DNA from: Lachnospiraceae bacterium XBB1006
Lineage (GTDB): Bacteria > Bacillota > Clostridia > Lachnospirales > Lachnospiraceae
DNA: 24,000 nucleotides
Reading direction: 5' to 3'
Assembly: GCA_900115795.1 (NCBI GenBank)
Contig: FOXT01000006.1
Location: 179,423-203,422 of the forward strand
A program made the translations under genes and the position numbers. A model generated the notes under the pieces. That model had not been told where the DNA came from, ran no database searches, and worked only from the letters and a program-made list of their open reading frames with translations. Every line of letters starts with the position of its first letter. Position 1 is the first letter of the stretch. Below, in pieces: positions 5,452 to 24,000 of the stretch.

Positions 5452-6246
5452 TTACATTCTTCCGGAAAGATCTTCCACAACTTTCATTGCTTCAAAAACT
5501 GCACTACGAAGTCCACGTTCTTCTAAAACCCGAACGGCTTCAATGGTAGTTCCGGCAGGAGAGCAAACCATATCCTTCAGCTCGCCCGGATGCTTGCCGG
5601 TGTCAAGCACCATTTTGGCACTACCTAAAACAGCTTGTGCTGCAAACTTGTAAGCCTGTGGTCTTGCCATTCCGCCACTTACAGCTGCATCCGCCATGGC
5701 TTCGATAAACATGTATACGTAAGCCGGGGAACTTCCGCTGACAGCGGTAACGGCATCCATCAATTTTTCCGGTACAATTTCTACTTCACCAAAGCTCTTT
5801 AACAGCTCTATAACCGTGTTCTTTTCCTCTTCTGTGATGTGTTCGTTCGGGCAAGCAGCCGTCATACCGGCGCCAACCATGGCAGGGGTATTTGGCATCA
5901 GACGAACAATTTTCACTTTCTTCCCAAACTGATCAGCCAACCAGGAAAGGGTTTTGCCCGGTGCGATGGTAATCACAATTTGCTCATCGCGAATTTCACC
6001 TGCAATCTGCGCAATGACATCTTGATAATACTGTGGTTTCACAGATAAAAATACAATGTCGGTATTCGCTACAACTTCCAGATTATCATCTGTAGTGTGG
6101 ATACCGAACTGCTTTTCCACTTTTTCACGGCTTGGTGCGAACACATCTGCACCATAGACTTCCTCCGGTTTTGCCAGACCATGGGATAAAATACCGCCCA
6201 TAATTGCACTGGCCATGTTTCCGGTTCCGATAAATCCAATTCTCAT
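5452..6246 (-). CDS. proC: pyrroline-5-carboxylate reductase
   Basis: 264 aa. The N-terminal Rossmann motif is MRIGFIGTGNMA. The C-terminal dimerisation region contains the conserved SPAGTT (MVCSPAGTTIEAV). RBS GGAGG is present. Confidence 0.93.
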   Translation of the reverse strand: MRIGFIGTGNMASAIMGGILSHGLAKPEEVYGADVFAPSREKVEKQFGIHTTDDNLEVVANTDIVFLSVKPQYYQDVIAQIAGEIRDEQIVITIAPGKTLSWLADQFGKKVKIVRLMPNTPAMVGAGMTAACPNEHITEEEKNTVIELLKSFGEVEIVPEKLMDAVTAVSGSSPAYVYMFIEAMADAAVSGGMARPQAYKFAAQAVLGSAKMVLDTGKHPGELKDMVCSPAGTTIEAVRVLEERGLRSAVFEAMKVVEDLSGRM

Positions 6247-6278
6247 ACATCATACCTCCGATTCACCCATCTGTTTCT

Positions 6279-6307
6279 ATTATACTCTTTGTAAAAGTCG
6301 GAGTAAA
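6279..6307 (-). promoter_or_regulatory. candidate sigma-A promoter of proC
   Basis: On the minus strand, TTTACT (6307-6302) is followed by a 17-nt spacer and TATAAT (6284-6279), about 30 nt upstream of the proC start. Confidence 0.55.
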
Positions 6308-6591
6308 GAACCTAGGGTGTTGATATTATTTTATCTCGGCTTCATATTTCCGGATGGCCTGACGGATAATATATAAAACTTCGCCGTTTATCGAACGGCC
6401 ATTAAAGGAGATGAATTAGTATGATTAAGCAAAATGAAGCACCTGAAAACCAGATATTTCCAATAATATGGAGGCGGTATATGTTAGTATAGTGCGCATT
6501 GTAAAAGTTAATTTTGAAATATAAAAATACAGAGGGTCGGCAAGATTACTTGCTTTAGAGTGAAGTTTTATAGGAAAAGTGCCGGAAATGG

Positions 6592-6625
6592 TTGACAATA
6601 GTGGAAATTACACCTATGCTATAAG
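6592..6625 (+). promoter_or_regulatory. orphan sigma-A-like promoter with no downstream ORF
   Basis: TTGACA (6592-6597) is followed by a 17-nt spacer and TATGCT (6615-6620). An overlapping TGcTATAAG extended -10 is also present. No ORF of 60 aa or more follows before the terminator at 7176-7218. Confidence 0.5.
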
Positions 6626-6776
6626 TTGATTCTCAACGGAGGGTGTGATATTTTAATAACCGCTGAGCGCCGCACCGCATAATAAGCGGGGTTGAGGCAG
6701 TTTTTACGGATTAAATAATGATTTAATCTGTCATTTTGGGTTATGCGCCGCAAAGTGGGTCTGGGTTCGAAAAGGA

Positions 6777-7128
6777 TTACGTGTCATATACTATTTTTTC
6801 ATTTTTACCCGTAGGCTTCGGTTATGTTTTTCCGAATTTGTACGGGTAAATTCTGCAAAATTACAATTTACCCGTAGGCTTCGGTTATGCTTTTCCGAAT
6901 TTGTACGGGTAAATTCTGCAAAATTACAATTTACCCGTAGGCTGCGGGTGTGCTTTTTCAAATTCCTACGGGTGGATTCTTATAAGCGCATATCCACCCG
7001 TAGATTTTCCATAATTCATAGCAAATGGCTACGTGTAAAGAACGTGATTTCGTCGCAATACCCGTAAAGTTTTTCGTTTCACAAACTTCTGTTACGGGCG
7101 ATTTCTTCATTGGTGGAATCCACCCGTA
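6777..7128 (+). repeat. multi-hairpin tandem element, copy 1 (five complete inverted-repeat units plus terminal half-arms, ~63-bp period)
   Basis: The left-arm core ACCCGTA starts at 6807, 6870, 6933, 6996, 7060 and 7122, giving periods of 63, 63, 63, 64 and 62. Each left arm is matched 16-29 nt downstream by TACGGGT or TACGTGT. Units 1 and 2 (6804-6850 and 6867-6913) differ at a single base. Confidence 0.9.
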
Positions 7129-7175
7129 TTTTCTTATTAGAGTAGAGAAACAACTGGATATTTTATCTACAGTTT

Positions 7176-7218
7176 AAAACGGCATCACCAGTTTTGCGGG
7201 CTGGAGATGCCGTTTTTT
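7176..7218. terminator. rho-independent terminator (bidirectional shape)
   Basis: AACGGCATCACCAG (7178-7191) pairs with CTGGAGATGCCGTT (7201-7214) with one mismatch and a 9-nt loop. Six T residues follow, and AAAA precedes. Confidence 0.75.
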
Positions 7219-7309
7219 GTGCGCTTTTCGGCGTACAAGATTACAAATAAGCGTGGATTGTAGATGCCTAGCGGTGTAGCAATAAATGGTATATACAATG
7301 ATGTGACGA

Positions 7310-7480
7310 TTAATTATTATTACTTGTAGATTCCATGTTTTCTAATGCGTATTCACAGGCTTGTAAGACGAAGCTTGAAAAAGTAACATTCTGATTTTCT
7401 AACACTTTCTCGATTCTGTCAATGAGTGACAGGGGAAAGCGAAAATGAAAATAGGCATGCCTGCGCCGGCTGTGTGACTT
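7310..7480 (-). pseudogene. ribbon-helix-helix (CopG/antitoxin-like) gene remnant lacking a start codon
   Basis: The minus-strand frame reads ...HFRFPLSLIDRIEKVLENQNVTFSSFVLQACEYALENMESTSNNN* with the stop at 7312-7310. This is a beta-strand plus two helices, the RHH pattern. There is no ATG, GTG or TTG between the upstream in-frame stop and the RHH strand. The 5' end runs into the palindromic element at 7445-7579. Confidence 0.35.
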
Positions 7481-7579
7481 TTAGGCAACGTCGGTACTTA
7501 GCACCTATGGTGCTTAGTACCGTTACGTTGGCGCTGAGCGAAAGCGCTCACACAGTGGCGCAGGTACGCCTATTCATTT
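7445..7579. repeat. MITE-like long imperfect palindrome with two internal hairpins (three-stem element)
   Basis: The outer arms are AATAGGCATGCCTGCGCCGGCTGTGTGA (7450-7477) and TCACACAGTGGCGCAGGTACGCCTATT (7548-7574). The inner hairpins lie at 7487-7529 and 7535-7550 (TGAGCG-AAAG-CGCTCA). The right arm abuts and overlaps the TGA stop of the TetR gene. Confidence 0.6.
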
Positions 7580-22154: not shown

Positions 22155-22160
22155 GGTAAT

Positions 22161-22272
22161 CATAAAGTGCGGTAGAGCCCGTATTTACGGGCTTTGCTGC
22201 ATTTTTGCTATTTCATCTTGGAGCGTCTGATCGTGTCAAATTTGGAAAAACTGGTGCACAAAACTGGGGGAG
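22161..22272 (+). repeat. direct repeat R1 (~115 bp)
   Basis: CATAAAGTGCGGTAGAGCCCGTATTTACGGGCTTTGCTGCATTTTTGCTATTTCATC...TCAAATTTGGAAAAACTGGTGCACAAAAC recurs at 22738-22853 with scattered substitutions and a small internal duplication. Confidence 0.85.
22168..22206 (+). terminator. probable terminator of the paralog operon
   Basis: An imperfect long stem pairs GCGGTAGAGCCCGTA with TACGGGCTTTGCTGC; the core AGCCCGT/ACGGGCT lies at 22176-22193. ATTTTT follows. Confidence 0.55.
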
Positions 22273-22277
22273 AGATA

Positions 22278-22622
22278 TCTTACGGGGCGTATGCGGTTTT
22301 CTCTATTTTCACACGTAGGCTTTCGTTGTGCTTTTTCTGATTCTTACGTGTGAATTTTCGATTGCTAAATTTGACCCGTAGTCCTCTAGAATGCTTTCCC
22401 ATCTTCTTACGGGTTATCCAAAGAAAATGCCATTTCACACGTAATCGTTCTGCTCCTTCTTACGTGTGAATTCTTGCAGACATAAATCCACACGTAGCTT
22501 TTCGAAAATCCATCTCTAAGGCTTACGTGTGAAACCGGTGTATTCGCCGCCTTACCCGTAAAGTTTTTCGTTTCACAAATTTCTGCTACGGGTGATTTCC
22601 ACAGCGATGTAGTTTACACGTA
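22278..22622 (+). repeat. multi-hairpin tandem element, copy 2 (colinear with copy 1)
   Basis: The left-arm core AC(A/C)CGTA starts at 22310, 22373, 22436, 22489, 22553 and 22615, giving periods of 63, 63, 53, 64 and 62. Each is matched by TACG(T/G)GT downstream. Unit E (22551-22594) is nearly identical to unit 5 of copy 1 (7060-7100). Confidence 0.9.
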
Positions 22623-22737
22623 ATTTCCATAAGAAAACGCTTTCCGAGCTTTGGGCTTTCGCCCAATGGGTAGGATAAAATAATCAGAAAAATTAGCACT
22701 CACCTCTTGAAGTAATCCGGTGGATTTCGACTTGTTT

Positions 22738-22853
22738 CATAAAGTGCTGTAGATCCCGTATTTACTGGCTTTGCGGCATTTTTACTATTTCATCGGAGAA
22801 CGTCCGAAGGTATCAAATTTGGAAAAATTGGTGTCAAAATTGGTACACAAAAC
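22738..22853 (+). repeat. direct repeat R2 (degenerate copy of R1)
   Basis: It aligns with R1 by eye over its whole length. The terminator stem is degraded here (GATCCCGTATTTACTGGCT). Confidence 0.85.
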
Positions 22854-22914
22854 GAGCCTGCAAATGGATGTGGAAGTGGCTATGTGTATTCGGAAATTAA
22901 AAACAAAAAATCTG

Positions 22915-22943
22915 TTGATAAATTTTCACGTAGGTGGTATACT
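22915..22943 (+). promoter_or_regulatory. sigma-A promoter of the ATPase gene
   Basis: TTGATA (22915-22920) is followed by a 17-nt spacer and TATACT (22938-22943), preceded by TGg as an extended -10. The spacer contains TTTCACGTAGG, which resembles a hairpin-element left arm. Confidence 0.65.
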
Positions 22944-23000
22944 ATCTGCGTAAAAGAATTTATTAACGGAAAATTCGTTTTTAATTTTGGAGGGCTGATA

Positions 23001-24000
23001 ATGAAACTATTACGAATCGTGGCAGATGGATTGCCACTCTTTAGAGAAAAACTGGATATATGTTTTTATGCCCAGCAGAGAGTGTCCGAGGAGCAGCAAG
23101 AACTTCTTTGCCCGGTGTTTTCGAATATATACTTAAATTCTGCCAATGGTATTATTGGTATTAATGCTTCCGGTAAGACATCTGTGTTGAAGGTAATACT
23201 TTTAGCGCTGGGGATTATTAATAACGAACCAATCAACCACATCGAGACCAAAGATATTCTGGGTAATGCAGAGAAAGCTGTGTTAGATATTTATTTCTAC
23301 TCTGCGTCAGGTAAGGAGATATGCCGTTTGGAAACTACTATTACATCAAACAAAACCAAGACGGAGGGTACTGTTTATAGTATATTATCAGAACGGATTT
23401 GGTCAAAGCAGATAGAAGAGATTACTACGCGAAAAGCGTTGCTTGATTTTGGTGATAGGGAGCCTATTATGCAAAGAAGTGGGCAGGAGGATTTTTTGCC
23501 GGATGATGTCAGCATCATGATTGCTCGAAATAAGCGAACAGGAGAGAATTTGCGGGTTGTGAATTTGCTTAGATTCACCAACAACAATGTGCTTCCTCTT
23601 TCCGACAATATTCCACCGGAGGTTATAACCTATCTGGATCCGACGATTGAGCGATTACAGTTTGAGGAAAAAGAACAAAAGACAGTCATATATCTCAAAT
23701 TCAAAGGAAAGGAAGAGATTGTGCTGAATAATCCTGCGCAATTAAATAATTATTTATCCTCCGGTACAGTGAAGGGAATCATTACCTTTACGCTGGCGCG
23801 GGAAGTGTTGCAGACGGGAGGATATATGATTGTTGATGAGTTGGAGAATCACTTTAACAAGGAAATTGTAACCACGTTGATGCGATTCTTTATGGATAAC
23901 AAGCTGAATAAGTATGGTGGTACATTGGTTTTTTCAACGCATTATCCGGAGCTGTTGGATGAGTACGACAGAAATGACAGTATCTATATTATTCGAAACA
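23001..24000 (+). CDS. AAA_21/ABC-type (SMC-like) ATPase, 5' partial, of the kind found in abortive-infection and defence systems
   Basis: This gene is absent from the ORF track because it runs off the window. I translated it myself from the ATG at 23001, with RBS GGAGGG 7 nt upstream. It is open for 333 codons to the window end. Walker A is GINASGKTSVLK, the signature-like motif is LSSGTVKG, Walker B is GYMIVDELENHF and the H-loop is VFSTHYPELL. Confidence 0.8.
   Translation, partial: MKLLRIVADGLPLFREKLDICFYAQQRVSEEQQELLCPVFSNIYLNSANGIIGINASGKTSVLKVILLALGIINNEPINHIETKDILGNAEKAVLDIYFYSASGKEICRLETTITSNKTKTEGTVYSILSERIWSKQIEEITTRKALLDFGDREPIMQRSGQEDFLPDDVSIMIARNKRTGENLRVVNLLRFTNNNVLPLSDNIPPEVITYLDPTIERLQFEEKEQKTVIYLKFKGKEEIVLNNPAQLNNYLSSGTVKGIITFTLAREVLQTGGYMIVDELENHFNKEIVTTLMRFFMDNKLNKYGGTLVFSTHYPELLDEYDRNDSIYIIRN

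Follow-up and report, generated by a model that had tools for sequence, protein, structure and literature searches.

Alternately inverted, helically phased DNA arrays in a Lachnospiraceae genome as predicted docking sites for a family of nuclease-like proteins

Introduction

The described systems that come closest to the locus reported here are those in which a dispersed repeat is tied to the gene of a dedicated enzyme. In Proteobacteria the REP and BIME repeats are accompanied by RAYTs, the REP-associated tyrosine transposases (PMC2817692; PMC3733652), the REP unit being a GC-rich imperfect palindrome of 20-40 bp with a centre of 2-4 nt and a 5' GT(A/G)G head (PMC2817692). NTS repeats are paired with SsnA, a representative of the GIY-YIG site-specific nucleases that act on single-stranded DNA (PMC11893778). 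The locus studied here, array W1, was found in a 24,000-nucleotide stretch of the genome of Lachnospiraceae bacterium XBB1006 (the window; contig FOXT01000006.1, positions 179,423 to 203,422). It is one of a group of arrays that resemble REP/RAYT, the nearest published kind, but are not members of it, and that are linked to the genes of a family of proteins of about 265 residues; a description of this pairing was not found in the literature searched.

Rows of short sites that serve a binding protein are also a feature of plasmid partition and replication systems, among them F sopC/SopB, R1 parC/ParR and the heptads of pSM19035 omega, where the binders are HTH, RHH or ParB proteins.

Results

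Anatomy of array W1

Array W1 (6777-7128, copy 1) is a block, homologous to other copies in the genome, of 12 arms in strictly alternating orientation, in the order RLRLRLRLRLRL. The extended arm motif, ATTYAC[A/C]CGTARG, is 13 nt long. The array starts with a lone right arm, R0 (6776-6788), which is TATGACACGTAAT on the minus strand and shows TTACGTGT at 6777, and ends with a lone left arm, L6 (7118-7130, plus strand), which is inverted relative to R0 and has its ACCCGTA at 7122. Between the two lie five dyad units, L1/R1 to L5/R5. Both arms of unit 1 (6803-6851; L1 6803-6815, R1 6839-6851) are of the C-type (ACCCGTA). Unit 2 (L2 and R2, 6866-6914) lies within the second copy (6867-6929) of a 63-bp tandem duplication and is followed by unit 3 (L3 and R3, 6929-6977). 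Unit 4 (6992-7040) is the sole mixed unit in W1, with a C-type L4 and an A-type R4 (TACGTGT), while conservation across the seven colinear copies is highest in the interior of unit 5 (L5 and R5, 7056-7103), AAAGTTTTTCGTTTCACAAAC.

The six left arms that the sequence-only reading had listed were all recovered, ACCCGTA occurring on the plus strand at 6807, 6870, 6933, 6996, 7060 and 7122 with spacings of 63, 63, 63, 64 and 62 bp. Its complement occurs within W1 at 6841, 6904 and 6967, and the imperfect right arms TACGTGT (7030) and TACGGGC (7093), belonging to R4 and R5, bring the L/R pairs to five. Counted on either strand of the whole window, ACCCGTA has 13 matches against 1.73 expected, a number reached in none of 100 shuffled sequences. 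The full core is kept in 11 of the 12 arms and the phase in all 12, the arm cores (CGTA or TACG) being evenly spaced at 31-32 bp throughout. The five pairs proposed earlier are thus real, but because the cores are evenly spaced the accompanying division into a 27-nt loop and a 22-nt spacer shifts with the position chosen as the start of the arm. A core spacing of 31-32 bp is approximately three helical turns, which places all arms on the same side of the duplex.

W1 lies next to proC and a TetR/glycyl-radical operon. It has no adjoining gene of the ~265-residue family, and a tblastn search of the flanks of W1 and W2 found no remnant of one below an E value of 0.01. A promoter-like site (TTGACA-17-TATGCT; 6592-6620, plus strand) precedes the array by about 155 nt; it has no conserved counterpart at the orthologous locus of the close relative SIG316 (see below), and its link to W1 is unproven. 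The interval between the site and the array (6621-6776) contains GC-rich hairpins, for example ccgctgagcgccgcaccgcataataagcgggg, and no ORF, and is not conserved in SIG316. Downstream of W1, at 7176-7219, there is a strong hairpin (-25.5 kcal/mol, z -4.5) preceded by an A-run and followed by a T-run, which is terminator-like in both directions and is kept together with the array in the sister species. A type III toxin-antitoxin system, in which W1 would be a ToxI-like RNA of tandem direct repeats with a toxin ORF beyond the terminator, was rejected, as no ORF of at least 60 aa follows on the plus strand (7220-7573) and the small frames there are unsupported.

Copies in the genome and their history

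The sequence-only reading had proposed a genome-wide count of the repeat. In the host assembly (2.72 Mb, 42% GC) this count comes to about 11 CGTA-core arrays with roughly 100 arms in 2.7 Mb, and seven of the arrays, W1 included, are colinear, being homologous over about 360-400 bp and 67-85% identical. The second copy in the window, W2 (22277-22674), has A- and C-type units, one of them short with a 21-bp spacing. The other colinear copies are at C18:244748-245145, C33:12742-13137, C29:61815-62195 and, on the minus strand, C31:142135-142464 and C18:7826-8211. Four further arrays have the CGTA core and the spacing in common with W1 and lack the colinear interior; two of these are at C33:35665-35795 and C19:58828-59076, and two are linked to genes of the paralogs C15a and C17 described below. 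Wherever the core spacing in the seven copies departs from 31/32 bp it takes only the values 21-22, 63, 74 and 96 bp, each of them close to an integral number of helical turns. The third unit is short in W2, C18d and C33, giving a period of 53 instead of 63 bp. Arm columns are better conserved (0.81) than non-arm columns (0.69).

All seven copies lie between co-directional genes, four in sense and three in antisense orientation to the downstream gene. A neighbouring gene shared by the copies was sought and rejected, as none is common to their flanks. A gene for a Zn-dependent-PLC-like protein of 225 aa beside copy C18a was also rejected as a partner: it is single-copy, and its eight homologs from 200 genera lack arrays within 1.5 kb. 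Its adjacency to C18a is probably due to chance.

Among close relatives, copies detectable by BLAST were confined to the MAG 'Lachnospiraceae bacterium SIG316'. The SIG316 ortholog of W1 is 95.8% identical over 377 nt, compared with 88.9% for the adjacent ABC-transporter genes, and is shorter by exactly one 63-bp unit. In W1 a 63-bp unit is detected at 6804-6980 by Tandem Repeats Finder, and 6804-6866 is 98% identical to 6867-6929. The earlier proposal that units 1 and 2 are a recent duplication is upheld by this identity and by the unit missing from SIG316, from which it follows that they were most likely duplicated after the two species split. The left flank of W1 is rearranged in SIG316. 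There a proC homolog with 76% identity (L020 2482-3322 against 5452-6287 of the window) is inverted, and the ABC genes beyond it are 89% identical; these differences suggest that sequence at the array's edge was locally rearranged or replaced.

Four copies occupy the same loci in the sister species, which indicates low mobility on that timescale, and the existence of seven colinear copies indicates that whole arrays have been copied. Target-site duplications and flanking repeats were absent from the eight other arrays tested, flanking repeats being found at W2 only. Here, the array and a tail of about 115 nt are bracketed by direct repeats of about 97 nt (22160-22256 and 22737-22833; 86% identical), the first of which contains the terminator of the upstream operon. 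An empty-site comparison found no array downstream of atpC in nine other members of the genus; synteny differs at this position, so that no clean insertion boundary can be drawn. Just downstream of W2 lies a gene for an AAA_21 (AbiEii/OLD-type) ATPase (22884-24000, continuing to C18:203577), followed by an ORF of 172 aa without a family match (C18:203589-204107); the two may form a defence module.

The host genome contains other repeats. A near-perfect palindrome of about 57 nt, AATTTGCATAATAAATCGTCTCTGCAAGTTAACTTGCGAGAACGATTTTTATGCAAATT, is present in 18 copies in both orientations, for example at C18:29749-29805, C18:82638-82694 and C17:570-625; it may be MITE-like or REP-like, and the CGTA arrays are unrelated to it. 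A non-coding tandem array at C18:5407-6056 comprises 6.4 copies of a 102-bp unit.

A family of nuclease-like proteins

A pattern search for CGTA-type arrays across 400 Lachnospiraceae genera, in which the genes neighbouring the matches were inspected, returned matches in 11 other genomes; the reversed pattern, used as a control, gave 0-2 per genome. One of the arrays abuts the start of a 268-aa ORF, a member of the ~265-residue family that has eight paralogs in the host genome. Neither Pfam nor NCBIfam gave a match to the family. Over its last ~120 residues the protein matches the C-terminal end of the PADLOC candidate PDC-S68 (1e-25) as well as HEAT_CxxC_PD-DEXK, and PHROG families of endonucleases and Holliday-junction resolvases are matched weakly. 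An AlphaFold2 model of a family protein (pLDDT 91.5) has as its best, though weak (E about 0.04), fold matches the PD-(D/E)xK domains of Bax1, the R2 endonuclease, DrdV, MunI and Can2. The protein combines a helical N-terminal half with a nuclease-like C-terminal domain of the PD-(D/E)xK type. The motifs RSKSE163, PD194F and E209-H210-x-G are invariant in 46 sequences.

The family is large, a profile search collecting 2,960 clusters (50% identity) at E<=1e-30, and in a sample drawn across the order it was present in two of about 34 bacterial families. Named homologs, from Pseudobutyrivibrio, Butyrivibrio and Lachnospiraceae MAGs, are all annotated 'hypothetical protein'. At one locus (L127; G213:C1:89411-89773) the nuclease-type C-terminal domain ends an open frame of 1279 aa, an arrangement like that of PDC-S68.

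Arrays precede genes of the family

Immediately upstream of genes of the ~265-residue family, a stretch of 250-400 bp is occupied by arrays of the same build as W1. With linkage defined as a 6-mer present at least three times in each orientation within 800 nt upstream, arrays precede 15 of 20 homologs from five genera, most of the downstream regions having 1-2 pairs; the genomes of these genera had been chosen for CGTA arrays, although cores other than CGTA predominate among the arrays counted. A second sample covered the order evenly and was not selected for arrays; in it, seven of nine closer homologs (E<=1e-57) have upstream arrays. Combined, an array precedes 22 of the 29 closer homologs from ten other genomes, compared with 1% of background genes in the host, although these counts overstate independence because genomes of one family are related. 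Within the host three of the eight paralogs reach the threshold, compared with 20 of 1971 background genes (1%), and two further paralogs have degenerate or long-period arrays. At L091, L092, L143 and L118 arrays stand on both sides of the gene. Upstream arrays were absent from the 13 distant homologs of the order-wide sample (12 with a full upstream window), several of which have downstream arrays.

Among the distant homologs from a second family of the order, L129, L139, L130 and L140 (G491 and G502; E 1e-23 to 1e-26) lack upstream arrays and have inverted 6-mers downstream, with up to eight pairs of CTCATC. The layout of gene and array may differ in this lineage.

The host paralog C15a and its four closest homologs have W1-like arrays with the arms CAGCCGTAA, AGACGTAA, TCACGTAG, TGCGCGTAA and GCACGTAA, in which R follows L at 20-21 or 29-31 bp and L follows R at 31-34 bp, and which stop 20-60 nt short of the start codon. 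At the 3' end of the C17 gene lies a 63-bp GAGCCGTAA array, which adjoins an N stretch (C17:56855-57000) such that its full length is not readable. The W1 core CGTA(A/G) is common to the arrays of C15a, C17 and four close homologs. The proteins whose arrays have a CGTA core all belong to a single clade of a maximum-likelihood tree; outside this clade the arrays have other cores, such as GGCTAA, GACTAA and CAGGGA. The ACC-CGTA and ACA-CGTA arm cores of W1 do not exactly match any paralog's own array; ACA-CGTA arms are closest to the array of C15a and ACC-CGTA arms to C17-type arrays.

Of 23 array periods compiled by hand (52-53, 60, 62-64, 73-75, 83-85, 95 and 115 bp), 22 differ by at most 1 bp from a multiple of 10.5 bp, the exception being the period of 60 bp, which belongs to a gene-linked array. 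Spacing in whole turns speaks for the geometry of duplex DNA. In the host, a non-coding array directly upstream of the family paralog at C18:23970-24761 (C18:23415-23816) has 3.5 copies of a 115-bp unit with inverted CGCTGGGGC/GCCCAGCG and TGGGCCAAT/ATTGGCCCA arms.

A predicted row of duplex-DNA docking sites

W1 is probably an orphan row of docking sites on duplex DNA for proteins of the ~265-residue family, a reading that we hold with somewhat better than even confidence. It agrees with the secondary suggestion of the sequence-only reading that 63 bp, six turns of DNA, marks a protein-binding array; the 31/32-bp arm spacing and the whole-turn periods favour this suggestion, and the binding is predicted. 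W1 is a member, without a gene, of a family of arrays scattered through the genome. One or two CGTA-clade paralogs would supply the subunits, which would dock on the duplex arms side by side along one face of the helix, and two-fold contacts between neighbouring subunits would account for the alternating arm orientation. The candidate binders are the paralogs at C15:107024-107842 and C17:57199-57999, suggested by the likeness of the arm cores, and the paralog at C31:139578-140378, which is a third candidate because an HTH-methyltransferase gene lies 196 nt downstream of the colinear copy on C31, with this paralog after it. An array beside its own gene would serve to control or load the protein, while at an orphan site such as W1 the array would be an extra docking platform, or the relic of one. 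Proteins docked on W1 may influence proC or the TetR/glycyl-radical operon, and the nuclease-like domain may cut DNA.

Folded single strands and other explanations

An unlikely alternative, which nevertheless fares best of those considered, is that W1 is a single-stranded DNA hairpin element of the REP/RAYT or NTS/Ssn type, whose L/R pairs fold during replication or DNA uptake and are recognized or cut by the nuclease-like protein, thereby spreading the arrays. Consistent with pairing, the C/A variant before CGTA is mostly matched within L/R units: counted by hand, the arm type switches about 13 times between units and four times within them. The same pattern would be expected if a symmetric protein dimer read two similar half-sites. 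The copying of whole arrays, the genes flanked by arrays on both sides, and the association of a dispersed repeat with a cognate nuclease gene, as in RAYT (PMC2817692) and Ssn (PMC11893778), also fit this alternative. Against it, stems of 7-10 bp around loops of about 21 nt are weak for DNA hairpins, the whole-turn spacing, which holds both from L to R and from R to L, points to duplex geometry, and the lack of target-site duplications, with flanking repeats at W2 only, and the retention of four copies at their loci in the sister species argue against active spread. Nor does the partner belong to the Y1/HUH or the GIY-YIG enzymes.

The headline of the sequence-only reading, a hairpin RNA, fares worse and is very unlikely. 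It would require a structured non-coding RNA of five stem-loops, an sRNA or a protein sponge, with plus-strand transcription starting at the promoter-like site (6592) and stopping at the terminator (7176-7219). These elements do bracket W1, terminators also follow copies C18d and C33, and the matching of arm types within L/R pairs is as expected of stems. The plus strand folds better than shuffled sequences (-107.1 kcal/mol, z -5.7), but in its minimum-energy fold every right arm is paired with the left arm that follows and the five L/R hairpins are not formed, and the minus strand folds as well or better (-109.1 kcal/mol, z -6.7). There was no Rfam 15 match at the gathering score in the whole window, and a search of 6400-7400 at E<=1 returned only noise of 15-20 bits. 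G.T mismatches (50) are not in excess over A.C mismatches (43), so that neither strand carries a wobble signature, and outside the invariant core both pairing registers are 41-44% complementary. The inner helix of units 1-2, TTCGG/CCGAA, is not kept in the other copies. The RNAalifold consensus structure mixes the pairing registers, as all arms are alike, and is therefore uninformative. Upstream of R0 there is no conserved promoter, the flank differing in SIG316, and the copies are divided four to three between sense and antisense to the downstream gene. Finally, loop length changes in steps of 10 bp and periods are whole helical turns, neither of which is required by an RNA. After these tests of folding, wobble, orientation and phasing the RNA gene reading was dropped.

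The least probable explanation is an inert relic that once preceded a since-lost family gene and now persists without function, changing only by slippage, which would accord with the missing neighbour at W1, the orphan status of most arrays, the recent slippage-type duplication and the imperfect R4 and R5, but not with an array better conserved between species (95.8%) than its flanking genes (88.9%), with 11 of 12 full cores and all arms in phase, or with flanks free of pseudogene remnants.

Discussion

The preferred reading of W1, a row of docking sites on duplex DNA, can be extended to the arrays as a whole. It is possible, although we put this forward tentatively and at less than even confidence, that the arrays and the ~265-residue proteins constitute an undescribed and widespread repeat-plus-nuclease system of the Lachnospiraceae and a neighbouring family, in which arm sequences private to each paralog are read on one face of the duplex, the protein forms a filament over sites phased in whole turns, and orphans that mix two arm types, such as W1, are platforms shared by two paralogs. 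If this is correct, a large unannotated protein family would gain a testable role together with a DNA code that is readable since arm cores differ between clades of the protein. Sequence-specific PD-(D/E)xK binders or cutters with private sites of 8-9 bp could also serve as reagents. If the docking reading holds, arrays of the W1 type should not be annotated as sRNAs, CRISPRs or terminators.

Several known systems share part of this picture. CRISPR arrays are similar in their period of about 63 bp, their partly palindromic repeats and their non-coding location. In W1, however, the arms alternate, the copies are colinear homologs, and the 'spacers' are conserved between copies and duplicated within the array. 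A CRISPR array needs direct repeats in one orientation and unique spacers, and was rejected since the inter-arm segments of W1 are homologous in the seven copies. Centromere, iteron and operator arrays likewise have rows of short, helix-phased sites beside or over the promoter of the presumed binder's gene, but they are not accompanied by as many as eight chromosomal paralogs with site sequences of their own, or by numerous orphan arrays.

The NTS/Ssn systems also tie a small nuclease gene to its own dispersed repeat, with many homologs that each have their own sequence. There the enzyme is of the GIY-YIG type and cuts single-stranded DNA at a single motif, whereas here the C-terminus of the partner matches PD-(D/E)xK models and folds, and phased arrays of inverted arms precede the gene.

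The likeness to REP/BIME-RAYT extends further. In both, a dispersed intergenic repeat forms clusters of regularly spaced, alternately oriented units, a cognate nuclease-type gene accompanies a minority of copies while most have none, and the repeat sequence changes with the protein. The partners differ, a PD-(D/E)xK-like protein here and a Y1/HUH transposase there, as do the repeats, a 13-nt arm here and a compact GC-rich palindrome with a GT(A/G)G head there. The arms are AT-rich outside the CGTA core, are not palindromic, lie 21 or 31-32 bp from their partner and have GTA(G/A) inside the core. The sequence-only reading had noted that GTAG recalls REP/RAYT; the analogy holds, but GTAG or GTAA is part of the arm core here, there is no palindrome head and no RAYT is linked to arms. 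A genome search with PF01797 for a RAYT flanked by arms gave a single match, C27:38022-38381, with no AC[AC]CGTA arms within 1.5 kb; this Y1 transposase is followed by a TnpB-like ORF, the two forming an ordinary IS200/IS605 tnpA-tnpB pair. A RAYT or IS200 element as the mobiliser was rejected on the grounds that this sole Y1 transposase has no arms nearby. Copy number may differ as well, with about 11 arrays, or roughly 100 arms, here against hundreds of copies there (usually more than 100 per genome). The spacing of the arms is quantised in helical turns, which suggests recognition of the duplex, and the host is a Firmicute. If the reading proposed here is true, the arrays and their proteins would be a Firmicutes counterpart to REP/RAYT and NTS/Ssn, built on a different enzyme and on the helical phasing of duplex DNA.
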